Of a stretch of DNA of 64,000 bases, positions 1 to 43,954 are shown in pieces (within the stretch, counting starts at the first letter, position 1; each line of letters opens with the position of its first letter). Where the stretch lies: NCBI RefSeq assembly GCF_041248615.1, contig NZ_CP158426.1; one strand, given 5' to 3'. The notes under the pieces are model-generated. The model was given only the letters and a program-made list of their open reading frames with translations, had not been told where the DNA came from and did not search any database. The DNA comes from Escherichia coli (GTDB lineage: Bacteria > Pseudomonadota > Gammaproteobacteria > Enterobacterales > Enterobacteriaceae). A program made the position numbers and the translations under genes.

Positions 1-33
1 TCAAAGGTTTCGTTAACAAAGCGGCATATTGAT

Positions 34-1512
34 ATGAGCTTACGTGAAAAAACCATCAGCGGCGCGAAGTGGTCGGCGATTGCCACGGTGATTATCATCG
101 GCCTCGGGCTGGTGCAGATGACCGTGCTGGCGCGGATTATCGACAACCACCAGTTCGGTTTGCTTACCGTGTCGCTGGTGATTATCGCGCTGGCAGATAC
201 GCTTTCTGACTTCGGTATCGCTAACTCGATTATTCAGCGAAAAGAAATCAGTCACCTTGAACTCACCACGTTGTACTGGCTGAACGTTGGGCTGGGGATC
301 GTGGTGTGCGTGGCGGTGTTTTTGTTGAGTGATCTCATCGGCGACGTGCTGAATAACCCGGACCTGGCACCGTTGATTAAAACATTGTCGCTGGCGTTTG
401 TGGTGATCCCCCACGGGCAACAGTTCCGCGCGTTGATGCAAAAAGAGCTGGAGTTCAACAAAATTGGCATGATCGAAACCAGCGCGGTGCTGGCGGGCTT
501 CACTTTTACAGTGGTTAGTGCCCATTTCTGGCCGCTGGCGATGACCGCGATCCTCGGTTATCTGGTCAATAGTGCGGTGAGAACGCTGCTGTTTGGCTAC
601 TTTGGCCGCAAAATTTATCGCCCCGGTCTGCATTTCTCGCTGGCGTCAGTGGCACCGAACTTACGTTTTGGTGCCTGGCTGACGGCGGACAGCATCATCA
701 ACTATCTCAACACCAACCTTTCAACGCTGGTGCTGGCGCGTATTCTCGGCGCGGGCGTGGCAGGGGGATACAACCTGGCGTACAACGTGGCCGTTGTGCC
801 GCCGATGAAGCTGAACCCAATCATCACCCGCGTGTTGTTTCCGGCATTTGCCAAAATTCAGGACGACACCGAAAAGCTGCGCGTTAACTTCTACAAGCTG
901 CTGTCGGTGGTGGGGATTATCAACTTTCCGGCGCTGCTCGGGCTGATGGTGGTGTCGAATAATTTTGTACCGCTGGTCTTTGGTGAGAAGTGGAACAGCA
1001 TTATTCCGGTGCTGCAATTGCTGTGTATTGTGGGTCTGCTGCGTTCGGTAGGTAACCCGATTGGTTCGCTGCTGATGGCGAAAGCGCGGGTCGATATCAG
1101 CTTTAAATTCAACGTATTCAAAACCTTTCTGTTTATTCCGGCGATTGTTATTGGTGGGCAGATGGCGGGCGCAATCGGCGTCACGCTTGGCTTCCTGCTG
1201 GTGCAGATTATCAACACCATTCTGAGCTATTTCGTGATGATTAAACCGGTGCTCGGTTCCAGTTATCGCCAGTACATCCTGAGTTTATGGCTGCCGTTTT
1301 ATCTCTCGCTGCCGACGCTGGTGGTCAGTTATGCGCTGGGCATTGTGCTGAAAGGGCAACTGGCGCTGGGGATGCTGCTGGCGGTGCAAATAGCCGCGGG
1401 CGTGCTGGCGTTTGTGGTGATGATTGTGCTGTCGCGCCATCCGCTGGTGGTGGAAGTGAAGCGTCAGTTTTGTCGCAGCGAAAAAATGAAAATGCTTTTA
1501 CGGGCGGGGTGA
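34..1512 (+). CDS. wzxC: Colanic acid exporter/flippase WzxC (polysaccharide transporter family)
   Basis: 492-aa multi-TM ORF; recognised sequence and position immediately before wcaK-wcaL-wcaM. Confidence 0.9.
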   Translation: MSLREKTISGAKWSAIATVIIIGLGLVQMTVLARIIDNHQFGLLTVSLVIIALADTLSDFGIANSIIQRKEISHLELTTLYWLNVGLGIVVCVAVFLLSDLIGDVLNNPDLAPLIKTLSLAFVVIPHGQQFRALMQKELEFNKIGMIETSAVLAGFTFTVVSAHFWPLAMTAILGYLVNSAVRTLLFGYFGRKIYRPGLHFSLASVAPNLRFGAWLTADSIINYLNTNLSTLVLARILGAGVAGGYNLAYNVAVVPPMKLNPIITRVLFPAFAKIQDDTEKLRVNFYKLLSVVGIINFPALLGLMVVSNNFVPLVFGEKWNSIIPVLQLLCIVGLLRSVGNPIGSLLMAKARVDISFKFNVFKTFLFIPAIVIGGQMAGAIGVTLGFLLVQIINTILSYFVMIKPVLGSSYRQYILSLWLPFYLSLPTLVVSYALGIVLKGQLALGMLLAVQIAAGVLAFVVMIVLSRHPLVVEVKRQFCRSEKMKMLLRAG

Positions 1513-1583
1513 GTTGTTGTTTTAGTCACTGGCAATAAAAACAACAACATAACCTCACCTGGCATCAAATTTATGAGGAAAAA

Positions 1584-2864
1584 ATGAAATTACTTATTCT
1601 GGGCAACCACACTTGCGGCAATCGTGGCGACAGCGCCATCCTGCGCGGCTTACTTGATGCCATCAACATCCTCAATCCACATGCCGAAGTGGACGTGATG
1701 AGCCGCTATCCGGTCAGTTCTTCCTGGCTACTCAACCGCCCGGTAATGGGCGATCCGCTGTTCCTGCAAATGAAACAACACAACAGCGCGGCGGGCGTTG
1801 TCGGACGCGTTAAAAAAGTCCTCCGTCGCCGCTATCAACACCAGGTACTGCTCTCACGCGTCACCGACACTGGCAAGCTGCGTAATATCGCCATCGCCCA
1901 GGGATTCACTGACTTCGTGCGCCTGCTGTCAGGTTACGACGCCATTATTCAGGTCGGCGGATCGTTTTTTGTCGATCTCTACGGCGTGCCGCAGTTTGAA
2001 CACGCGCTTTGCACATTTATGGCGAAAAAGCCGCTGTTTATGATTGGTCACAGCGTCGGCCCCTTCCAGGATGAGCAATTTAACCAACTGGCGAACTACG
2101 TTTTTGGTCACTGCGACGCGCTGATCCTGCGCGAATCGGTCAGCCTTGATCTGATGAAACGCAGCAATATCACCACTGCAAAAGTTGAACATGGCGTCGA
2201 TACCGCGTGGCTGGTCGATCACCACACAGAAGACTTCACCGCCAGCTATGCCGTTCAACACTGGCTGGACGTTGCCGCACAACAGAAAACGGTGGCCATT
2301 ACCCTGCGCGAACTGGCACCGTTCGACAAACGTCTCGGCACCACTCAACAAGCGTATGAAAAAGCCTTTGCTGGGGTGGTCAATCGCATTCTCGATGAAG
2401 GGTATCAGGTGATTGCGCTCTCCACCTGTACGGGTATCGACAGCTATAACAAAGACGACCGCATGGTGGCGATCAACCTGCGCCAGCACATCAGCGATCC
2501 TACCCGTTATCACGTAGTGATGGATGAACTCAACGATCTGGAAATGGGCAAAATTCTGGGTGCCTGTGAACTCACCATCGGTACGCGCCTGCACTCGGCT
2601 ATTATCTCGATGAATTTCTCCACTCCGGCAATTGCCATCAACTACGAACATAAATCCGCCGGGATTATGCAGCAGCTGGGGCTGCCAGAGATGGCAATTG
2701 ATATCCGTCATTTACTGGACGGCAGCCTGCAAGCGATGGTTGCGGATACCTTAGGCCAGCTTCCGGCGCTGAATGCGCGACTTAGTGAAGCCGTCAGTCG
2801 TGAGCGTCAGACAGGAATGCAGATGGTGCAGTCAGTGCTTGAGCGCATCGGGGAGGCGAAATGA
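1584..2864 (+). CDS. wcaK: Colanic acid biosynthesis pyruvyl transferase WcaK
   Basis: 426-aa ORF, recognised sequence, conserved cluster position; stop overlaps next start. Confidence 0.9.
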   Translation: MKLLILGNHTCGNRGDSAILRGLLDAINILNPHAEVDVMSRYPVSSSWLLNRPVMGDPLFLQMKQHNSAAGVVGRVKKVLRRRYQHQVLLSRVTDTGKLRNIAIAQGFTDFVRLLSGYDAIIQVGGSFFVDLYGVPQFEHALCTFMAKKPLFMIGHSVGPFQDEQFNQLANYVFGHCDALILRESVSLDLMKRSNITTAKVEHGVDTAWLVDHHTEDFTASYAVQHWLDVAAQQKTVAITLRELAPFDKRLGTTQQAYEKAFAGVVNRILDEGYQVIALSTCTGIDSYNKDDRMVAINLRQHISDPTRYHVVMDELNDLEMGKILGACELTIGTRLHSAIISMNFSTPAIAINYEHKSAGIMQQLGLPEMAIDIRHLLDGSLQAMVADTLGQLPALNARLSEAVSRERQTGMQMVQSVLERIGEAK

Positions 2865-4081
2865 AGGTCGGCTTCTTTTTACTGAAATTCCCGCTGTCTT
2901 CGGAAACCTTCGTCCTCAACCAAATCACTGCGTTTATTGATATGGGCTTTGAGGTGGAGATTGTTGCGCTGCAAAAAGGCGACACACAAAACACCCACGC
3001 GGCATGGACGAAATACAACCTTGCCGCCAGAACCCGCTGGTTACAGGACGAACCTACGGGCAAAGTGGCGAAGCTGCGCCACCGCGCCAGCCAGACCTTA
3101 CGCGGCATTCATCGTAAAAATACCTGGCAGGCGCTCAACCTCAAACGCTATGGTGCCGAGTCGCGGAACCTGATTTTGTCTGCCATTTGCGGCCAGGTCG
3201 CAACACCGTTTCGCGCCGATGTGTTCATCGCTCATTTTGGCCCGGCGGGGGTAACCGCAGCAAAACTACGGGAACTGGGTGTCATTCGCGGCAAAATTGC
3301 CACTATTTTCCATGGTATTGATATCTCCAGTCGGGAAGTGCTCAACCACTACACCCCCGAATATCAGCAACTGTTTCGCCGTGGCGACCTGATGTTACCG
3401 ATAAGCGATCTGTGGGCCGGAAGGCTGCAAAAAATGGGCTGCCCGAGGGAAAAAATCGCCGTATCGCGCATGGGCGTGGACATGACGCGCTTTAGCCCGC
3501 GCCCGGTGAAAGCGCCCGCAACGCCGCTGGAAATCATTTCCGTTGCACGCTTAACCGAGAAAAAAGGCCTGCATGTGGCGATCGAAGCCTGCCGTCAGTT
3601 GAAAGAGCAGGGCGTGGCATTTCGCTATCGCATCCTCGGCATTGGCCCGTGGGAACGACGCCTGCGCACCCTTATCGAACAATATCAACTGGAAGATGTG
3701 GTAGAGATGCCGGGCTTTAAACCGAGCCATGAAGTGAAAGCGATGCTCGACGACGCGGATGTCTTCCTGTTGCCATCGGTTACAGGTGCGGATGGTGATA
3801 TGGAAGGCATTCCGGTGGCGCTAATGGAAGCGATGGCGGTCGGCATTCCGGTGGTTTCTACTCTGCATAGCGGAATACCGGAACTGGTGGAGGCTGACAA
3901 ATCCGGCTGGCTGGTGCCTGAGAACGATGCCCGTGCACTGGCGCAACGACTGGCGGCGTTTAGCCAACTGGACACCGACGAACTGGCACCGGTCGTCAAA
4001 CGTGCGCGCGAAAAAGTCGAACACGATTTTAACCAGCAGGTGATTAACCGAGAACTCGCCAGCTTGCTGCAGGCTTTATAG
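2861..4081 (+). CDS. wcaL: Colanic acid biosynthesis glycosyltransferase WcaL (GT4-like)
   Basis: 406-aa ORF, 4-nt overlap with wcaK; GT4-like C-terminal region ([13 protein letters not shown]). Confidence 0.9.
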
Positions 4082-4091
4082 AGGAGAACGC

Positions 4092-5486
4092 ATGCCATTT
4101 AAAAAACTCTCCCGACGCACCTTCCTGACGGCAAGCTCGGCGCTTGCCTTCCTCCATACCCCTTTCGCCCGTGCACTTCCTGCCCGGCAAAGCGTTAACA
4201 TTAACGACTACAACCCTCACGACTGGATCGCCTCATTTAAACAAGCCTTCAGCGAAGGGCAAACGGTCGTCGTGCCCGCCGGATTGGTTTGCGACAATAT
4301 CAACACCGGCATCTTCATTCCTGCAGGTAAAACGTTACACATCCTTGGAAGCCTGCGCGGCAACGGCAGAGGGCGATTTGTCTTACAGGACGGCAGCAAG
4401 GTGACAGGGGGGGAGGGCGGCAGTATACATAACATCACCCTGGATGTGCGTGGTTCTGACTGCACCATCAAAGGGCTGGTGATGAGCGGCTTTGGCCCGG
4501 TGACGCAGATCTATATCGGCGGCAAAAACAAACGGGTCATGCGCAACCTGACCATCGATAACCTCACCGTTAGCCACGCTAACTACGCCATCTTACGCCA
4601 GGGATTTCATAACCAGATTATCGGTGCCAATATCACCAATTGTAAGTTCAGCGACTTACAGGGCGACGCCATTGAATGGAACGTGGCAATTAACGACAGT
4701 GATATTTTGATCTCCGACCATGTGATCGAGCGCATCAACTGTACTAACGGCAAAATCAACTGGGGCATTGGCATCGGCCTTGCGGGAAGTACCTACGATA
4801 ATAATTATCCGGAAAACCAGGCAGTGAAAAACTTTGTCGTGGCGAATATCACGGGATCAGATTGTCGGCAACTGATCCATGTTGAAAATGGTAAACATTT
4901 TGTTATCCGTAATATCAAAGCTCGTAATATCACGCCGGATTTCAGTAAGAAAGCAGGTATTGATAACGCCACAGTTGCTATTTATGGTTGTGACAACTTT
5001 GTGATTGATAATATTGAAATGATTAATAGTGCCGGGATGTTAATTGGCTATGGGGTAATTAAAGGCAAATATCTCTCGATACCGCAGAATTTCCGAGTGA
5101 ATGATATTCAACTGGATAATACTCATCTTGCTTATAAATTGCGCGGCATCCAAATCTCCGCCGGGAATGCTGTCTCCTTTGTGGCGCTGACTAACATTGA
5201 GATGAAGCGTGCGTCGCTTGAGCTACACAATAAACCGCAACACCTTTTTATGCGAAATATCAATGTGATGCAGGAATCCTCTGTTGGACCCGCATTGAGC
5301 ATGAACTTCGACATGCGCAAAGACGTACGCGGTGTCTTTATGGCGAAAAAAGAAACACTGCTGTCTCTTGCAAATGTTCATGCGGTGAATGAAAAAGGAC
5401 AAATCTCCGTCGATATCGACAGGATTAATCACCATATTGTTAATGTGGAGAAGATTAACTTTAGATTGCCAGAACGGAGGGAGTAG
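4092..5486 (+). CDS. wcaM: Colanic acid biosynthesis protein WcaM (signal peptide, beta-helix-like)
   Basis: 464-aa ORF with N-terminal Tat-like signal ([14 protein letters not shown]); last gene of the wca cluster before galF. Confidence 0.85.
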
Positions 5487-6926: not shown

Positions 6927-8012
6927 GTGAAGATACTTGTTACTGGTGGCGCAGGATTTATTGGTTCTGCTGTTGTTCGTCACATAATAAATAATACGCA
7001 AGATAGTGTTGTTAATGTCGATAAATTAACATACGCCGGAAACCTGGAATCACTCGCTGAAATTTCTGATTCTGAACGTTATTCATTTGAGCATGCAGAT
7101 ATCTGCGATGCCGAAGCGATGGCTCGTATTTTCGCACAGCACCAGCCAGACGCGGTGATGCACCTGGCAGCAGAGAGCCACGTTGACCGCTCAATAACTG
7201 GCCCTGCGGCATTTATTGAAACCAATATTGTGGGTACTTATGTTCTTTTAGAAGCGGCGCGCAATTATTGGTCTGGTCTGGATGATGAAAAGAAAAAAAA
7301 CTTCCGTTTTCATCATATTTCTACTGATGAGGTGTATGGTGACTTACCCCATCCGGATGAAGTAAATAGCAATGAAACGTTGCCGCTATTTACGGAAACG
7401 ACAGCATACGCGCCAAGTAGTCCATATTCTGCTTCTAAAGCTTCCAGCGATCATTTGGTTCGCGCATGGAAACGTACTTATGGTTTACCGACCATTGTGA
7501 CTAATTGCTCGAACAACTATGGTCCTTATCATTTCCCGGAAAAGCTTATTCCACTGGTTATTCTTAATGCACTGGAAGGTAAGGCATTACCTATTTATGG
7601 CAAAGGAGATCAGATCCGCGACTGGTTGTATGTAGAGGATCATGCTCGAGCGTTATATACCGTCGTAACCGAAGGTAAAGCGGGCGAAACTTATAACATT
7701 GGTGGACACAACGAAAAGAAAAACATCGACGTAGTGTTCACTATTTGTGATTTGTTGGATGAGATAGTCCCGAAAGAGAAATCTTATCGTGAGCAAATTA
7801 CCTATGTTGCTGATCGCCCAGGGCATGATCGCCGTTATGCAATTGATGCCGATAAAATTAGCCGCGAATTGGGCTGGAAACCGCAAGAAACGTTTGAGAG
7901 CGGTATTCGTAAAACGGTGGAATGGTATCTGGCTAATACAAATTGGGTTGAGAATGTGAAAAGCGGTGCTTATCAGTCGTGGATTGAACAGAACTATGAG
8001 GGCCGCCATTAA
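6927..8012 (+). CDS. rmlB: dTDP-glucose 4,6-dehydratase RmlB
   Basis: N-terminus [16 protein letters not shown] (GTG start), SDR-extended family; ORF track start 6858 likely too far upstream. Confidence 0.9.
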
Positions 8013-8911
8013 TGAATATCCTCCTATTCGGCAAAACAGGGCAGGTAGGTTGGGAACTGCAGCGTGCTCTGGCACCGCTGGGTAATCTGATTGCTCTTGA
8101 TGTTCACTCCACTGATTATTGTGGTGATTTTAGTAATCCCGAAGGTGTAGCTGAAACTGTCAAAAAAATTCGCCCTGATGTTATTGTTAATGCGGCTGCT
8201 CACACTGCAGTAGACAAAGCGGAATCAGAACCGGAATTTGCACAATTACTTAACGCGACAAGTGTCGAAGCGATTGCAAAAGCAGCCAATGAAGTCGGCG
8301 CTTGGGTTATTCACTACTCTACTGACTACGTATTTCCGGGAACCGGTGAAATACCGTGGCAGGAGACGGATGCTACAGCACCTTTGAATGTTTATGGTGA
8401 AACTAAACTAGCCGGAGAAAAAGCGTTACAGAAACATTGCGCGAAGCATATTATTTTCCGTACCAGCTGGGTATATGCAGGTAAAGGAAATAACTTCGCC
8501 AAAACAATGTTGCGTCTGGCAAAAGAGCGCGAAGAACTGGCTGTGATAAACGATCAGTTTGGCGCACCAACAGGTGCCGAATTGCTGGCTGATTGCACCG
8601 CTCATGCCATTCGCGTAGCAGTAGACAAACCAGAAGTTGCTGGTTTGTACCATCTGGTTGCTGGCGGTACAACAACCTGGCACGATTATGCCGCTCTGGT
8701 ATTTGAAGAAGCGCGCAAAGCAGGGATTAACCTTGCTCTTAACAAACTTAACGCCGTGCCAACAACGGCCTATCCCACACCAGCCCGTCGACCCCATAAC
8801 TCTCGCCTCAATACAGAAAAGTTTCAGCAGAACTTTGCGCTTGTCTTGCCTGACTGGCAGGTGGGTGTGAAACGAATGCTCAACGAATTATTTACGACTA
8901 CGGCAATTTAA
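8012..8911 (+). CDS. rmlD: dTDP-4-dehydrorhamnose reductase RmlD
   Basis: 299-aa [19 protein letters not shown]; 1-nt overlap with rmlB stop. Confidence 0.9.
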   Translation: MNILLFGKTGQVGWELQRALAPLGNLIALDVHSTDYCGDFSNPEGVAETVKKIRPDVIVNAAAHTAVDKAESEPEFAQLLNATSVEAIAKAANEVGAWVIHYSTDYVFPGTGEIPWQETDATAPLNVYGETKLAGEKALQKHCAKHIIFRTSWVYAGKGNNFAKTMLRLAKEREELAVINDQFGAPTGAELLADCTAHAIRVAVDKPEVAGLYHLVAGGTTTWHDYAALVFEEARKAGINLALNKLNAVPTTAYPTPARRPHNSRLNTEKFQQNFALVLPDWQVGVKRMLNELFTTTAI

Positions 8912-8969
8912 CAAATTTTTGCATCTCGCTCATGATGCCAGAGCGGGATGAATTAAAAGGAATGGTGAA

Positions 8970-9848
8970 ATGAAAACGCGTAAAGGTATTATTCTGGCTG
9001 GTGGTTCCGGCACTCGTCTTTATCCTGTGACGATGGCAGTAAGTAAACAACTGCTGCCGATTTATGATAAGCCGATGATTTATTATCCGCTTTCAACGCT
9101 TATGTTAGCGGGTATTCGCGATATTCTTATTATCAGTACGCCACAGGATACGCCGCGTTTCCAACAATTGTTGGGGGACGGGAGCCAGTGGGGGCTTAAT
9201 CTACAGTATAAAGTACAACCGAGTCCGGATGGCCTGGCGCAAGCGTTTATCATTGGTGAAGACTTTATTGGTGGCGATGATTGTGCACTTGTGCTTGGTG
9301 ATAATATCTTCTATGGACACGACTTGCCGAAATTAATGGAAGCTGCTGTTAACAAAGAAAGCGGTGCAACGGTATTTGCTTATCACGTTAATGATCCTGA
9401 ACGTTATGGTGTCGTGGAGTTTGATAATAACGGTACTGCAATTAGCCTGGAAGAAAAACCGCTGGAACCAAAAAGTAACTATGCGGTTACTGGGCTTTAT
9501 TTCTATGACAATGACGTTGTGGAAATGGCGAAAAACCTTAAGCCTTCTGCCCGAGGTGAACTGGAAATTACCGATATTAACCGTATTTATATGGAACAAG
9601 GACGTTTGTCTGTCGCTATGATGGGGCGTGGCTATGCATGGCTGGATACAGGGACGCATCAAAGTCTTATTGAAGCAAGCAACTTCATTGCCACCATTGA
9701 AGAGCGCCAGGGACTAAAGGTTTCCTGTCCGGAAGAAATTGCTTATCGTAAAGGGTTTATTGATGCTGAGCAGGTAAAAGTATTAGCCGAACCGTTGAAG
9801 AAAAATGCTTATGGTCAGTATCTGCTCAAAATGATTAAAGGTTATTAA
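8970..9848 (+). CDS. rmlA: Glucose-1-phosphate thymidylyltransferase RmlA
   Basis: 292-aa [14 protein letters not shown] nucleotidyltransferase motif. Confidence 0.9.
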
Positions 9849-9852
9849 TAAG

Positions 9853-10398
9853 ATGAACGTAATTAAAACTGAAATTCCTGATGTATTAATATTTGAACCA
9901 AAAGTATTTGGGGATGAGCGTGGTTTTTTTATGGAAAGCTTCAATCAGAAAGTTTTCGAAGAAGCTGTGGGGCGGAAGGTTGAATTTGTTCAGGATAACC
10001 ATTCTAAGTCTACTAAAGGAGTAATTAGAGGATTACATTTTCAATTACCACCTTATTCACAGGCAAAATTAGTACGCTGTGTAGTAGGTGAGGTATATGA
10101 CGTTGTTGTTGATATAAGGAAAGATTCTAAAACTTTTGGCAAATGGGTCGGTGTAAATCTTTCTGCTGAAAACAAGCGACAGTTGTGGATTCCAGAAGGA
10201 TTCGCCCATGGTTTTGAAGTGATTAGTGAAGTCGCTCATTTTTTATACAAAACAAATAATTATTATAATGCAACTATGGAAAAAGGTATAAGATGGGATG
10301 ATGAATATTTAGCTATTAATTGGAAAGAAAAAAAAGCGATAATCTCTGAGAAAGACATGAAACAACCATCATTCAGAGAACTTTTTGAGAAAGTTTAA
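9853..10398 (+). CDS. rmlC: dTDP-4-dehydrorhamnose 3,5-epimerase RmlC
   Basis: 181-aa ORF; cupin-like RmlC sequence (DERGFF, RGLHFQ); markedly AT-rich compared with rmlBDA. Confidence 0.85.
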   Translation: MNVIKTEIPDVLIFEPKVFGDERGFFMESFNQKVFEEAVGRKVEFVQDNHSKSTKGVIRGLHFQLPPYSQAKLVRCVVGEVYDVVVDIRKDSKTFGKWVGVNLSAENKRQLWIPEGFAHGFEVISEVAHFLYKTNNYYNATMEKGIRWDDEYLAINWKEKKAIISEKDMKQPSFRELFEKV

Positions 10399-11832
10399 TT
10401 GATGAATAACAAACTAGCCAGGCAAGGATTATTATGGAGCACAATTGAAAGGCTAGGAACGCAAGCCATACAATTATTATTAATGTTGTATTTGGGTAGG
10501 GTTCTTGGACCAAGCTCTTTTGGTTATGTTGGTATGCTAACTTTATTTCTATCATTAGCTCAGGTTCTAATTGATAGTGGATTTAGTGCAGCATTAATTA
10601 GAAAATCGGAGCGTACTGAAAAAGATTATTCGACAGTATTTATATTTAATATTTGTCTATCAATACTAATATATATTGTACTTTATTGTTTATCTTCTTA
10701 TATTGCTTTATTCTATCAAATACCTCTGCTGGAATCTTTACTTGATATTTTAGCATTAACAGTTATAGCAAATGGTCTAACTTTAATCCCCAAGATTCAA
10801 CTCACTGTAGACGTGAATTTTAAGATCCAAGCTAAAAGTTCACTTATCGCTATTACCAGTAGTAGTGTAATAGCGATAACGTTAGCTGCTTTGGGTTATG
10901 GAGTATGGACATTGGTTTTCCAATCGTTATCCTATAGTGTCATAAATTGTATTGTACTGAATATTTATAATCCATGGTATCCAAAAGAGAAATTTTGCTA
11001 TGAAACATTCAAAAAGCTATTTTCATTTAGCAGTAACTTACTAATTGCTGGAGTACTTGAAGCTTTTTATTCAAATATATATCAATTAATTATAGGGAAA
11101 TTTTTTACACCACAGCTTGTAGGGCAATTTACACAGGCTAATCAGATCTCTAGCGTACCTGCAATGACACTTACTAATATTATTCAGAGAGTAACTTATC
11201 CACTTTTTTGTAATATTTATAATGGCAAAGGGAAAATAGATGATGCTTATTTAAACACACTTAAAATTGCAGGCGTTGTAGTTTTTCCAATTCTATTAGG
11301 AATAGGTTTAATCTCGAAGCCATTAGTCTCTGTATTATTAGGAAGTGAGTGGAAATTTACATCTGATATTCTGTTTCTACTTTGTATTGCATTTATGATT
11401 TATCCTATACATGCAATAAATATTAATATCCTACAGGTTCATGGGCGAAGTGATCTTTTTTTGCGTTTGGAAATACTAAAAAAGACATTGATGACAATTA
11501 TTCTTGTCATTACGATGCAAATAAATATAAATGCAATGGTGATTGGTTTAGTTTTACACTCATATCTTTCGTGGTTTTTAAATGGATTATTTAGCCAGAA
11601 AGTATCAACGATCACAATAAGGAAGCAGTTAAAAGAGTTACTACCTATATGGTGTCTATGTTTAATTAGTGGGTTAGGTTCTAACTATATTATAAATGAA
11701 ATAAGTATGGAACCTTTATTAAATATAATATTTACTATTTTATTAAATGCCATTATATACATCACACTAATTCGAATTATGTACAAAGAAATATTTATGA
11801 CTATTATTTCTCTTATAAAAAATAAGGGCTGA
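10399..11832 (+). CDS. wzx: O-antigen flippase Wzx (polysaccharide transporter family)
   Basis: 477-aa highly hydrophobic multi-TM ORF in AT-rich O-antigen cluster, directly after rmlC. Confidence 0.75.
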   Translation: MMNNKLARQGLLWSTIERLGTQAIQLLLMLYLGRVLGPSSFGYVGMLTLFLSLAQVLIDSGFSAALIRKSERTEKDYSTVFIFNICLSILIYIVLYCLSSYIALFYQIPLLESLLDILALTVIANGLTLIPKIQLTVDVNFKIQAKSSLIAITSSSVIAITLAALGYGVWTLVFQSLSYSVINCIVLNIYNPWYPKEKFCYETFKKLFSFSSNLLIAGVLEAFYSNIYQLIIGKFFTPQLVGQFTQANQISSVPAMTLTNIIQRVTYPLFCNIYNGKGKIDDAYLNTLKIAGVVVFPILLGIGLISKPLVSVLLGSEWKFTSDILFLLCIAFMIYPIHAININILQVHGRSDLFLRLEILKKTLMTIILVITMQININAMVIGLVLHSYLSWFLNGLFSQKVSTITIRKQLKELLPIWCLCLISGLGSNYIINEISMEPLLNIIFTILLNAIIYITLIRIMYKEIFMTIISLIKNKG

Positions 11833-11834
11833 AA

Positions 11835-25215: not shown

Positions 25216-25820
25216 TCACTGATGCCGTTTACGCAGGTTCTCAATTACCGTCGTTAAATCCAGATCCTGATCCTGCAACAACACCAGCAGGTGATACATC
25301 AAGTCAGATGCTTCGTTGGTCAGTTCAAAGCGGTCATGCACCGTTGCGGCCAGTGCGGTTTCCACGCCTTCTTCGCCCACTTTCTGCGCAATGCGTTTGG
25401 TGCCGCTGGCATACAGTTTGGCTGTGTAAGAGGTTTCCGGGTCGGCAGATTTGCGTTCGGCGAGCAGTTGTTCCAGTTGATACAGGAACAGCCACTGGTG
25501 AGCGGTGTCGCCGAAGCAGCTGCTGGTACCTTTGTGGCAGGTTGGCCCGATTGGATTTGCCAGCACCAGTAACGTGTCGTTGTCGCAGTCCGGAGCAATA
25601 CTCACCACATTGAGAAAATTGCCCGACGTTTCGCCTTTGGTCCACAGTCGCTGTTTAGTGCGCGAGAAGAAGGTGACATTGCCGCTTTCGATGGTTTTGT
25701 CCAGAGCTTCCGGGGTCATATAGCCCAGCATTAACACTTCGCCAGATACCGCGTGTTGCACAATCACCGGCATAAGTCCGTCGGTTTTTTCCCAGTCCAG
25801 TTCGCGACGTTGTTGTTCTG

Positions 25821-25827
<7 letters not shown>
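25216..25827 (-). CDS. hisI: Bifunctional phosphoribosyl-AMP cyclohydrolase / phosphoribosyl-ATP pyrophosphatase HisIE
   Basis: 203-aa ORF, recognised; last gene of his operon. Confidence 0.95.
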
Positions 25828-27905
<2,078 letters not shown>

Positions 27906-27906
<1 letters not shown>

Positions 27907-28972
27907 TACAGCACTCCTTTCGACGAGGGCAGGGTATCGCCTTCCACGCGGATGGCCTGGCGCAGGGTACGACCAAAGGCTTTGAACAGGCTTTCTACAC
28001 GGTGATGATCGTTTTTACCTTTGGTTTTCAGGTGCAGCGTCACGCCCATGGTGTAAGAGAGTGAGCGGAAGAAGTGTTCGATCATTTCAGTGCTGAGATC
28101 GCCCACGCGCTGGTAGGTAAACTCGGCTTTATATTCCAGGTGCGGGCGACCAGAGATATCCAGCGCGCAGCGGGCAAGGCATTCGTCCATCGGTAGCACA
28201 AAACCAAAGCGACAAATACCGCGTTTATCGCCGAGGGCAATTTTTAACGCTTCGCCCAGCGCCAGGCCGGTATCTTCGACGGTGTGGTGATCGTCGATAT
28301 AGAGGTCGCCTTTGACGTTGATTTCCATGCGGAAACCGCCGTGGGTGGCGATCTGATCCAGCATATGATCAAAGAAGCCAACGCCGGTGTTAATCTTGCT
28401 GCCACCTTCGCGATCCAGCCACACCTGGACGTCAATCTGCGTCTCTTTGGTGTTGCGCACTACATGGGCGTAACGGTCTCGTTTAGTGAGTTGCTCGCCA
28501 ATCATCGGCCAGTTCAGGGTTTCGCGGTCGTAGCGTAAACCATTAATGCCCATGTTTTCCGCCAGTTGAATGTCGGTCGCGCGATCGCCAATCACATAAC
28601 TGTTGGCACGATCCATCGCTTGCTCAGCCAGATAACGCTCCACCAGTTTTACTTTCGGCTTACGGCAGTCGCACTCATCGGCGGGCAGGTGCGGACAAAT
28701 CAGCACTTCATCAAACTGCACGCCTTGCGAGGTGAAGATCTGCATCATCAGGTTGTGCGGGCCATCAAAATCCGCCTGTGGGAAACTTTGTGTTCCAAGG
28801 CCATCCTGATTAGTGATCATCACCAGTTTGTAGCCCGCTTTTTGCAGCTTCAGCAGCTCCGGGATCACGCCCGGTTCAAAGGCGAGTTTGTCAAAACGGT
28901 CTACCTGAAAATCACTCGGCGGTTCGCTAATCAGGGTTCCATCGCGATCGATAAAAAGATACTTCTGACTCA

Positions 28973-28973
<1 letters not shown>
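27906..28973 (-). CDS. hisB: Bifunctional histidinol-phosphatase / imidazoleglycerol-phosphate dehydratase HisB
   Basis: [16 protein letters not shown]-terminus; 355 aa. Confidence 0.95.
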
Positions 28974-31344
<2,371 letters not shown>

Positions 31345-31349
31345 GGCGA

Positions 31350-32249
31350 TCACTCCATCATCTTCTCAATCGGCAGCACCAGGATTGAACTGGCACCCAG
31401 CGCTTTCAGTTTTTCCATCGTTTCCCAGAACAGGGTTTCGCTACTGACCATGTGCATCGCTACGCGCTGTTGATCACCTGCCAGCGGCAGAATAGTTGGG
31501 CGTTCGGCACCTGGCAGCAGGGCGATGACTTCATCCAGACGTTCAGTCGGTGCGTGCATCATGATGTATTTTGATTCGCGCGCCTGGATCACGCCCTGAA
31601 TACGGGTCAGCAGCTTGTCGATCAGTTGCTGTTTAGATTCTTCCATTTCGCCATCGCGCTGGATCAGGCAGGCTTTCGAGCGGTAGATAACTTCGACTTC
31701 GCGCAGGCCGTTAGCTTCCAGCGTGGCACCGGTGGAAACCAGATCGCAAATCGCATCCGCCAGTCCGGCGCGCGGGGCGACTTCAACAGAACCGTTCAGT
31801 AAGCAGGATTTAAAAGAGATGCCTTTCTGGTCGAGATAACGCTTGAGCAGGTGAGGATAAGAGGTGGCGATACGTTTACCGTTTAAGGAGAGCGGACCGT
31901 CCCAGGCTTCATCAACCGGCGTTGCCAGCGAAAGGCGGCAGCCGCCGAAATCCAGTCGACGCAGGGTAAAGTAGCGCGGATCTTCACCCTGGGCTCGGCG
32001 GTTAAGCAGCTCTTCTTCCAGCACGTTTTCGCCGATAATCCCAAGGTCTACCACGCCGTCCATTACCAGACCGGGAATGTCGTCGTCACGCACGCGCAGA
32101 ATATCAATCGGCATGTTTTCTGCCATCGCGATCAGGCGCTGGGTGTGAAGATTGATTTTAATGCCACAGCGCGCCAGCAATTCGCGTGAGTCATCACTTA
32201 AACGGCCGGATTTCTGCATAGCTATGCGTAAACGAGTGTTGTCTGTCAT
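31350..32249 (-). CDS. hisG: ATP phosphoribosyltransferase HisG
   Basis: [20 protein letters not shown] track start 32288 is an upstream extension. Confidence 0.95.
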
Positions 32250-32294
32250 TTTCTTATTCCTCTTTAAACCTGTCTGAACCGTTATCAACAGCGC

Positions 32295-32333
32295 AATAAA
32301 AAAGCCCCCGGAAGGTGATCTTCCGGGGGCTTT
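32295..32333 (-). terminator. his operon attenuator terminator hairpin
   Basis: GC-rich inverted repeat agcccccggaag/cttccgggggct followed (minus strand) by a U-run; lies between hisL and hisG. Confidence 0.8.
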
Positions 32334-32394
32334 CTCATGCGTTCATGCACCACTGGAAGATCTGAATGTCTTCCAGCACACATCGCCTGAAAGA

Positions 32395-32445
32395 CTAGTC
32401 AGGATGATGGTGATGATGGTGGTGTTTAAATTGAACGCGTGTCAT
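32395..32445 (-). CDS. hisL: his operon leader peptide HisL (MTRVQFKHHHHHHHPD)
   Basis: Minus-strand reading atgacacgcgttcaatttaaacaccaccatcatcaccatcatcctgactag: seven consecutive His codons. Confidence 0.9.
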   Translation of the reverse strand: MTRVQFKHHHHHHHPD

Positions 32446-32690
32446 AAAAGTCTCTGTGAATGTTTATTCAACTGATGTCTTTTAACCTAAACCACTTTCA
32501 CGTTAGAAAGCAAGGGCTTTTTTATATATTTTATGGCGATGGATTTGTTTAATGAATGAGCGGGGAAAGGAGGGGGCTAAGAGGACTGTCCTCTAACCTG
32601 ACGGCACCAAAAATAGCGAAGCCTGGATTTTCGTCTCACTGACAATATCTTGATCTACAAACTAATTAATAAATAGTTAATTAACGCCCA

Positions 32691-32715
32691 TCATTGTACA
32701 ATGAGCTGTACATAA
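32691..32715 (+). promoter_or_regulatory. yefM-yoeB operator/promoter palindromes with TGTACA cores
   Basis: tcattgtacaatga perfect 14-bp palindrome and second tgtaca 8 bp downstream, 13-37 bp upstream of yefM start. Confidence 0.6.
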
Positions 32716-32727
32716 GAGGAGATTGAT

Positions 32728-32979
32728 ATGCGTACAATTAGCTACAGCGAAGCGCGTCAGAATTTGTCGGCAACAATGATGAAAGCCGTTGAAGATCATG
32801 CCCCGATCCTTATTACTCGTCAGAATGGAGAGGCTTGTGTTCTGATGTCACTCGAAGAATACAACTCGCTGGAAGAGACGGCTTATCTACTGCGCTCCCC
32901 CGCTAACGCCCGGAGATTGATGGACTCAATCGATAGCCTGAAATCAGGCAAAGGAACGGAAAAGGACATTATTGAGTGA
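32728..32979 (+). CDS. yefM: Antitoxin YefM (type II TA system)
   Basis: 83-aa [24 protein letters not shown] recognised; overlaps yoeB by 4 nt. Confidence 0.92.
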
Positions 32980-33230
32980 AACTAATCTGGTCTGAGGAGT
33001 CATGGGATGATTATCTGTACTGGCAGGAAACAGATAAGCGAATTGTTAAAAAGATCATTGAACTTATCAAAGATACCCGCAGAACACCATTTGAAGGTAA
33101 GGGGAAGCCAGAACCCCTGAAGCATAATTTGTCAGGCTTCTGGTCCCGACGCATTACAGAGGAGCACCGTCTGGTATACGCGGTTACCGACGATTCACTG
33201 CTCATTGCAGCATGTCGTTATCATTATTGA
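32976..33230 (+). CDS. yoeB: Toxin YoeB (ribosome-dependent mRNA interferase, RelE/YoeB family)
   Basis: 84-aa [24 protein letters not shown] recognised. Confidence 0.92.
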
Positions 33231-33312
33231 ACAGATTCATTCATAGAATGAATTGTCAGTTTTGATACGCTAGCGTAGCCTTATAGATCTAAGGTGTATC
33301 AGGAGATAACGG

Positions 33313-34137
33313 ATGAAAAAGGTCGCAATTGTCGGGTTAGGGTGGTTAGGCATGCCGCTGGCGATGTCACTTTCAGCGCGAGGCTGGCAAGTCACCGGGA
33401 GTAAAACCACGCAAGATGGTGTCGAAGCGGCCCGAATGAGTGGCATTGATAGTTATCTGCTTCGCATGGAGCCTGAGTTAGTTTGCGATTCTGACGATCT
33501 GGATGCCCTGATGGATACCGATGCGCTGGTCATTACGCTTCCGGCACGTCGTAGCGGCCCCGGCGATGAGTTCTATTTACAAGCGGTACAAGAGTTAGTG
33601 GATAGCGCGCTGGCCCATCGTATTCCCCGCATTATTTTCACCAGCTCAACATCTGTCTATGGCGATGCGCAAGGCACGGTGAAAGAAACTACCCCGCGTA
33701 ATCCGGTGACCAACAGTGGACGAGTATTAGAAGAGCTCGAAGACTGGCTGCACAATTTACCCGGTACTTCGGTCGATATTCTGCGTCTTGCGGGGCTGGT
33801 CGGACCGGGACGTCATCCCGGACGCTTCTTTGCCGGAAAAACCGCCCCTGATGGTGAACATGGTGTTAATTTAGTCCATTTAGAAGATGTTATTGGCGCT
33901 ATCACTCTGTTGTTACAGGCACCTAAAGGCGGACACATCTATAATATATGTGCGCCAGCTCACCCTGCGCGTAATGTTTTCTATCCGCAGATGGCCCGTT
34001 TACTGGGGCTGGAACCTCCGCAGTTCAGAAATAGTCTGGACAGCGGCAAAGGTAAGATTATTGATGGCAGTCGGATTTGTAATGAACTGGGATTTGAATA
34101 CCAGTATCCCGATCCGCTGGTAATGCCGCTGGAGTAA
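33313..34137 (+). CDS. yeeZ: NAD(P)-binding epimerase/dehydratase-like protein YeeZ
   Basis: 274-aa ORF with Rossmann-type N-terminus (VAIVGLGWLG); conserved position. Confidence 0.85.
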   Translation: MKKVAIVGLGWLGMPLAMSLSARGWQVTGSKTTQDGVEAARMSGIDSYLLRMEPELVCDSDDLDALMDTDALVITLPARRSGPGDEFYLQAVQELVDSALAHRIPRIIFTSSTSVYGDAQGTVKETTPRNPVTNSGRVLEELEDWLHNLPGTSVDILRLAGLVGPGRHPGRFFAGKTAPDGEHGVNLVHLEDVIGAITLLLQAPKGGHIYNICAPAHPARNVFYPQMARLLGLEPPQFRNSLDSGKGKIIDGSRICNELGFEYQYPDPLVMPLE

Positions 34138-34182
34138 ACGATCACGCCAGCAGGACGCCGCATGCACTGCAAGGGGGCGTGT

Positions 34183-35112
34183 ATGAAACCACTGCTGGAT
34201 GTGTTGATGATCCTCGATGCCTTAGAAAAAGAAGGCAGTTTTGCGGCGGCGTCGGCCAAACTCTACAAGACGCCGTCCGCTCTGAGTTACACCGTTCACA
34301 AGTTGGAAAGCGACCTTAATATTCAATTGCTTGATCGTAGCGGACACCGCGCTAAATTCACCCGCACCGGAAAAATGTTATTAGAGAAAGGGCGGGAAGT
34401 TCTGCATACCGTGCGGGAACTGGAAAAGCAGGCGATCAAACTGCATGAAGGCTGGGAAAACGAGCTGGTGATTGGTGTGGACGACACCTTCCCTTTTTCT
34501 CTGCTTGCGCCACTCATTGAAGCTTTTTATCAACATCATAGTGTGACGCGCCTGAAGTTTATCAATGGCGTACTCGGTGGTTCCTGGGATGCCCTGACTC
34601 AGGGGCGAGCGGATATTATTGTTGGCGCGATGCATGAGCCACCATCTTCCAGTGAGTTTGGTTTTTCACGGTTGGGCGATCTGGAACAAGTCTTTGCGGT
34701 CGCGCCTCATCATCCGTTAGCCCTGGAAGAAGAACCGTTAAACCGTCGTATCATTAAGCGATATCGGGCGATTGTGGTGGGGGACACTGCGCAGGCCGGC
34801 GCTTCTACGGCCTCACAACTTCTCGACGAACAAGAAGCCATTACCGTTTTCGATTTTAAAACCAAGCTGGAGCTGCAAATTAGCGGCCTCGGCTGCGGCT
34901 ATTTACCCCGTTATCTGGCGCAACGTTTTCTCGATAGTGGCGCGTTAATCGAGAAGAAAGTGGTCGCCCAAACTCTCTTTGAACCCGTCTGGATTGGCTG
35001 GAACGAACAGACCGCAGGACTTGCCAGTGGCTGGTGGCGGGATGAAATTTTAGCAAATAGTGCGATCGCCGGTGTTTATGCAAAATCTGATGACGGAAAA
35101 TCAGCCATTTAA
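34183..35112 (+). CDS. yeeY: LysR-family transcriptional regulator YeeY
   Basis: N-terminal HTH (MKPLLDVLMILDALEKEGSFAAASAKLYKTPSALSYTV); 309 aa from internal Met. Confidence 0.85.
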   Translation: MKPLLDVLMILDALEKEGSFAAASAKLYKTPSALSYTVHKLESDLNIQLLDRSGHRAKFTRTGKMLLEKGREVLHTVRELEKQAIKLHEGWENELVIGVDDTFPFSLLAPLIEAFYQHHSVTRLKFINGVLGGSWDALTQGRADIIVGAMHEPPSSSEFGFSRLGDLEQVFAVAPHHPLALEEEPLNRRIIKRYRAIVVGDTAQAGASTASQLLDEQEAITVFDFKTKLELQISGLGCGYLPRYLAQRFLDSGALIEKKVVAQTLFEPVWIGWNEQTAGLASGWWRDEILANSAIAGVYAKSDDGKSAI

Positions 35113-43510: not shown

Positions 43511-43954
43511 TTAGCGACAGCCTTCTTCTGTATGCAGCAAGGCAAAAAGTTCTGCAACTCCATTGTTATTAACCGCACTGGTTACTAACACATTGTGCGC
43601 TCCAGCTTCCCGTAACCAACTTTTCACCAAAGATATTTGTTCCATGCTGGCTAAATCTGCTTTGGTGACTACTCCAATGACCGGGCGATTCATTGACGAG
43701 GTAAAGCCTGGCGAAAAAGGGGACCACGGTGCGTCCGCATTAAGCACCAGGGCGATAATGTCCGCTTCGCAGGCGCTGACCAACAGAGCACTGTAGAGGC
43801 TGCGGTTTTCGAGGTATTCGCCTGGTGTATCAATGGTGGTCGGGGACCAGACGATTGCCTGCGTTTTCTGATAATGAATATTTTCGCCACGCAGACATTG
43901 CGTGAGTGACGTTTTTCCGCACTGGCTGGGGCCGATGAGCATCATACGTTGCAT
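43511..43954 (-). CDS. pduV: Propanediol utilisation GTPase PduV (EutP/PduV family)
   Basis: 147-aa ORF with P-loop [10 protein letters not shown]; last gene of pdu operon here. Confidence 0.85.

Follow-up and report, generated by a model that had tools for sequence, protein, structure and literature searches.

An intact yefM-yoeB toxin-antitoxin operon with a minority YoeB N28I allele in Escherichia coli

Introduction

Positions 32691-33230 of a 64,000-nucleotide stretch of Escherichia coli DNA (hereafter the window) hold a palindrome and two short overlapping reading frames, and the question is whether these make up an intact toxin-antitoxin operon and how far this copy departs from the one described in E. 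coli K-12. The original prediction took the region for a complete yefM-yoeB module with its operator, and its span was found to be exact, opening with the first base of the palindrome and closing with the final base of the yoeB stop. On the evidence given below we put the probability at roughly 0.96 that the region is yefM-yoeB, a chromosomal type II toxin-antitoxin operon of E. coli, in intact form and at its normal site between hisL and yeeZ, and nothing that we found is at odds with the identification. It may be noted that one detail was absent from that first account: the toxin carries Ile instead of Asn at residue 28 (N28I), the codon at 33057-33059 on the forward strand being ATT where the alignments have AAT in K-12.

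Reading frames and identity of the two proteins

Both genes lie on the forward strand and, as had been claimed, both were seen from the sequence and the ORF list to be of full length with an overlap of 4 nt. The antitoxin and autorepressor gene yefM runs from an ATG at 32728 to a TGA at 32979 (83 aa), and yoeB, the gene of the ribosome-dependent mRNA endonuclease toxin (84 aa), runs from a GTG at 32976 to a TGA at 33230. The overlap is the tetranucleotide GTGA (32976-32979), which holds the GTG start of yoeB and the TGA stop of yefM, an arrangement of translational coupling, and it is the same in K-12.

The translated YefM is identical at 83 of 83 positions to the K-12 crystal protein (PDB 2A6Q chain A, E = 1.8e-49), and YoeB is identical at 83 of 84 positions to the E. 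coli YoeB of 2A6Q (chain E), 2A6R, 2A6S, 4V8X and 6OXA (E = 2.6e-55). Profile searches gave the same assignment. YefM scored 96.8 bits against Pfam PF02604 (cutoff 29.8) and 186.6 bits against the NCBIfam equivalog NF008499 (cutoff 121, a 1.5-fold excess), while YoeB scored 142.9 bits against Pfam PF06769 (cutoff 27), covering profile positions 1-80 of 80, and 129.8 bits against the NCBIfam Txe/YoeB equivalog TIGR02116 (cutoff 51.8), so that the cutoffs of PF02604, PF06769 and TIGR02116 were surpassed about 2.5- to 5-fold. YoeB is thus a member of the YoeB/Txe family by a full-domain score beyond both curated cutoffs, and YefM is a member of the Phd/YefM family by its two scores and by the position of its gene directly upstream of, and overlapping, the toxin gene.

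A substitution at a catalytic residue of YoeB would have counted against an intact module. The residues of YoeB that contact or cleave the A-site mRNA are Glu46, Lys49, Asn51, Arg59, Glu63, Arg65, His83 and Tyr84 (PMC6821326), and all eight are kept in the translated sequence, with no catalytic substitution. Across the YoeB family alignment, the conservation is 95% for E46, 98% for R59, 96% for R65, 80% for H83 and 78% for Y84. Given an identity of 83 of 84 residues to the characterised protein, we infer that YoeB I28 would cleave mRNA and arrest growth.

Position in the chromosome and distribution among E. coli genomes

The gene order hisG - hisL - yefM - yoeB - yeeZ - yeeY - yoeI - plaP is that of K-12. 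Upstream, and transcribed divergently from yefM, are the His operon leader (Rfam RF00514, 131.6 bits, 32296-32419, minus strand) and the hisL leader peptide (MTRVQFKHHHHHHHPD, 32395-32445, minus strand), followed on the minus strand by the his operon hisGDCBHAFI at about 25216-32250. The His leader was the only hit of an Rfam scan of 31000-35000 at gathering thresholds, and no RNA family was found over the module.

Many RefSeq E. coli chromosomes match 32600-33300 (701 bp) at 100% identity and carry the annotation yefM/yoeB there. Of 5426 complete E. coli genomes, 4216 have the module itself (32691-33230) and 5416 have its flanks; about 1200 lack the module. In two strains without it, O157:H7 SS TX 313-1 and SMS-3-5, identity to the window extends up to about 32583 and resumes from about 33236, and an unrelated segment of about 210 bp takes the place of the module; this segment (GCCGGATGCGGCGTGAATGCCTTATCTGG...) looks, by eye, like a REP element. 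Since the flanks are identical with and without the module, the toxin-antitoxin operon, its promoter and some 107 bp of DNA upstream of it together behave as a presence/absence cassette of about 650 bp, with an approximate extent of 32584-33235 on the forward strand as set by the alignment with these two strains, and it holds the promoter, the operator and both genes. The cassette sits between hisL and yeeZ and is present or absent across E. coli. A different state was seen in E. coli NZ_LR883000.1, where just 59% of the module (yefM and the start of yoeB) was matched, together with a second matching place, which suggests that yoeB is interrupted there, e.g. by an insertion.

Only 82 nt (33231-33312) separate the yoeB stop codon from the yeeZ start, and a terminator scan of 32300-33400 found no intrinsic terminator. 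An A/T-rich hairpin past the yoeB stop was considered as a terminator and rejected, as its fold (33226-33275) has an energy of -9.2 kcal/mol with z = -1.16, no better than that of shuffled sequences. This hairpin, at about 33235-33253, occurs in genomes that lack the module as well. Read-through of yefM-yoeB transcription into yeeZ is conceivable.

Some observations concern the rest of the window, which we compared by blastn with the corresponding loci of WP4-S18-ESBL-07. At 1-5486 the window has the last part of the colanic acid cluster (wzxC, wcaK-M), and an O-antigen cluster (rfbBDAC, vioA/vioB, glycosyltransferases and manC/manB-like genes) lies between galF and gnd at about 6927-21008; the latter is 99.7% identical to that of WP4-S18-ESBL-07, whose wzx and wzy bear an O7-family annotation. 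The alignment of 43.7 kb is near-identical, with 124 mismatches in total, except for about 25 clustered SNPs at 28524-29687 in hisB/hisC, which may be a small recombination patch. Collinearity stops at 43693, where a 183-bp CDS annotated as EutP/PduV family finishes. Past this point WP4-S18-ESBL-07 has an island with cbtA/cbeA, yeeS, antirestriction genes and IS elements, whereas the window has a propanediol-utilisation (pdu) microcompartment operon (about 43693-64000) whose sequence is the same as in NZ_LT599825.1 (100% identity). Only 635 of the 5426 complete E. coli genomes carry 80% or more of this 20-kb pdu stretch.

The N28I allele of YoeB

When compared with MG1655, the stretch 32440-33320 is 99% identical and the module itself is free of gaps. 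Within the genes, yefM has a single synonymous SNP (32970), and yoeB has 5 synonymous SNPs and one non-synonymous change, AAT to ATT, which gives N28I. Such a pattern, 6 synonymous to 1 non-synonymous, is that expected of purifying selection. Alignment to K-12 yefM-yoeB, the check on which the identification was to stand, matched in both genes and in the operator, the sole caveat being the non-catalytic N28I.

A sequencing error is ruled out as the source of this change. NCBI and UniRef already list a protein identical to YoeB I28, which is seen on at least 1000 public contigs, and the exact 57-mer with the ATT codon was found in 87 of 3781 matching complete E. coli genomes, or about 2% of the module carriers; most of the other matching genomes are one base off the 57-mer, like K-12. 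Judged by these sequence counts, I28 is a stable minority natural allele. How far the family accepts aliphatic residues here was seen by searching 1.84 billion cluster representatives and aligning the best 150 of them. In this alignment of the best matches, column 28 has N in 111 of 149 sequences (74%) and L, I or V in 15 (about 10%), of which 4 have I. In terms of the alignment, residue 28 is a moderately conserved position at which aliphatic residues are naturally present. N28I as a catalytic substitution is likewise ruled out, since residue 28 is neither catalytic nor in contact with mRNA (PMC6821326) and aliphatic residues occur naturally at the column.

What the change may do to the protein can be considered from the described structure, in which Asn28 is part of a hydrogen-bond network of the YoeB homodimer interface with Glu7, Tyr13, Gln17 and Arg35 (Pavelich et al., PMC6821326). 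The loss of Asn would most likely drop one polar YoeB-YoeB contact and leave toxicity and neutralisation intact, and from the sequence comparisons N28I is probably tolerated and YoeB I28 functional. Because most family members have Asn at this position, and because Asn28 is a reported member of the dimer hydrogen-bond network, a lower dimer or thermal stability of YoeB I28 is possible. We consider it unlikely that in this E. coli lineage I28 measurably alters the dimer or thermal stability of YoeB and, through it, the threshold or temperature dependence of toxin activity, or the co-repressor stoichiometry.

A stronger form of this argument would hold that the module is structurally intact yet functionally attenuated, N28I destabilising the YoeB dimer to give a less thermostable and weaker toxin at a locus that is drifting to loss. 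The position of Asn28 in the interface and its predominance at the column would fit such a view, as would the presence of Asn at the equivalent of residue 28 in all five solved homologues that were aligned, the lower thermostability of an engineered monomeric YoeB (PMC6821326) and the dispensability of a module that about a fifth of the complete genomes do without. Yet the same monomeric YoeB keeps its ribosome-dependent RNase activity (PMC6821326), and the dimer interface is largely hydrophobic (PMC6821326), such that Ile, in common with the aliphatic residues found in other family members, could pack well. Also the I28 allele is carried on its many contigs and complete genomes without accompanying frameshifts or stops, and YefM and the operator are fully conserved. 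Attenuation of this kind is therefore an unlikely reading, and a tolerated substitution in an intact operon is preferred.

Promoter and operator

The intact operon should also have its regulatory DNA in place, and the earlier account had described a perfect palindrome and a second TGTACA core as the autoregulatory operator. In K-12, DNase I footprinting defined this operator as a long (L) repeat, 5'-TCATTGTACAATGA-3', and a short (S) repeat that share a TGTACA core and are 12 bp apart (Kedzierska et al., PMC1802561), the YefM footprint spanning the -10 box (PMC1802561). We found exactly these repeats in the window. The L palindrome TCATTGTACAATGA is a perfect palindrome of 14 bp at 32691-32704 on the forward strand, identical to the K-12 L repeat, the primary binding site of YefM, and the TGTACA core of S, located by a repeat scan and with reference to PMC1802561, is at 32707-32712 around the transcription start. 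The distance from L to S is 12 bp centre to centre, as in K-12. The 14-mer has a single match in the 64-kb window at up to 2 mismatches (0.27 expected), and for TGTACA-N6-TGTACA no second site was found in the window when 1 mismatch was allowed (0.12 expected).

The promoter (pyy) was published with a -35 hexamer TAGTTA, a 17-bp linker, a -10 hexamer TACAAT and a G start (PMC7730913). Read from the forward strand of the window, the -35 TAGTTA is at 32674-32679 and is unchanged relative to K-12, the linker of 17 bp is at 32680-32696, and the -10 TACAAT is at 32697-32702, within the L palindrome. The transcription start, a G, is placed at 32708 from the first base of the yefM ATG being +21 in K-12 (PMC1802561) and from the published G start (PMC7730913). 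The register is confirmed by an ATG at 32701-32703, which is the published "other potential start codon at -7". A Shine-Dalgarno-like GAGGAG (32716-32721) precedes the yefM ATG by 6 nt, a spacing that agrees with the published description. The features of an autoregulated operon are thus found together, i.e. paired TGTACA cores 12 bp apart, of which the upstream one is extended to the full palindrome, with L lying over the -10 box and S over +1.

Four SNPs separate the promoter-leader region from that of K-12, at 32688 (in the linker), 32705 (between L and S), 32713 (adjoining S) and 32727 (just before the ATG), and none of the K-12 SNPs is in L, the S core, the -35, the -10 or the Shine-Dalgarno sequence. 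Disruption of the operator, which would have spoken against the prediction, was thereby looked for in the K-12 alignment and found neither in L nor in the S core. It is possible that the four SNPs near the operator affect promoter strength or repression. With an identical repressor and identical operator repeats, we infer that YefM would repress this promoter and that YoeB would strengthen the repression.

A generic sigma-70 scan of 32300-33400 did not call the yefM-yoeB promoter. Its failure is explained by the published -35 TAGTTA, which has just 3 of the 6 consensus bases, and as the scan is blind to pyy the promoter was placed by the literature coordinates. That the palindromes and the two short reading frames arose by chance in intergenic or AT-rich DNA, with no function as a unit, is extremely improbable: the uncalled promoter and the finding of at least one match to the 14-mer at up to 2 mismatches in 24 of 100 shuffles would be in keeping with it, but the promoter is missed only through its weak -35, the 14-mer agrees base for base with the footprinted K-12 operator and lies as far from yefM as was mapped by experiment, and the reading is refuted by the protein identities (E-values of 2e-49 and 3e-55 against solved structures), the K-12 alignment, the footprint literature and the equivalog scores.

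Relation to known systems

The yefM-yoeB operon of the window is closest to E. coli K-12 YefM-YoeB (b2017/b4539; PDB 2A6Q, 2A6R, 2A6S, 4V8X, 6OXA), with which it shares the locus hisL - yefM - yoeB - yeeZ - yeeY. YefM is 100% identical and YoeB 83/84, and L, S, the -35, the -10, the Shine-Dalgarno sequence, the GTG start and the GTGA overlap are identical; the differences are N28I in YoeB, the 6 synonymous SNPs and the 4 promoter-leader SNPs beyond the defined motifs.

Axe-Txe of the Enterococcus faecium plasmid pRUM has a homologous pair of a Phd/YefM-type antitoxin and a YoeB/Txe toxin, and its operator also has paired TGTACA cores 12 bp apart and a -10 of TACAAT (PMC7730913). It differs in being plasmid-borne, with more distant proteins, and in the layout of its promoter pat, where L is in the -35/-10 linker, S is partly over the -10 and repression is weaker (PMC7730913), whereas in the window, as in K-12 pyy, L is over the -10 and S over +1. 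Other solved toxins of the YoeB family (S. aureus YoeB-YefM 6L8E/7BWF, M. tuberculosis RelJK 3OEI, 6N90 and 8YXV) belong to the RelE-superfamily YoeB fold family and match at E = 1e-24 to 2e-30. They have the conserved GKPE...SRRI...R...HY motifs in common with YoeB of the window, although with many substitutions, and all those aligned keep Asn at the equivalent of residue 28 where the window has Ile.

Proposed mode of action and significance

If the operon acts as it does in K-12, a YefM dimer would bind the L palindrome over the -10 box and then the S repeat over the transcription start, and YefM on both repeats would block RNA polymerase, in keeping with the steric-hindrance mechanism described for repression at pyy (PMC7730913). 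YoeB bound to YefM would serve as co-repressor and tighten the binding to DNA. Degradation of YefM, reported as Lon-dependent by Christensen et al. (2004) as cited in PMC7730913, would free YoeB, which as a dimer is then expected to enter the ribosomal A site and to cut the mRNA codon there. All of these steps are taken from the K-12 literature, and the I28 allele is expected to act as the K-12 system does.

The view that this is a known system was borne out by sequence identity, by the equivalog models and by synteny, the operon being a well-studied one of E. coli and this copy ordinary apart from its minority N28I allele. It serves chiefly to anchor the annotation of the window correctly, as a textbook toxin-antitoxin operon at its canonical chromosomal position. 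Also, the I28 allele of this strain is a natural variant that would be useful for the study of why YoeB is an obligate dimer.
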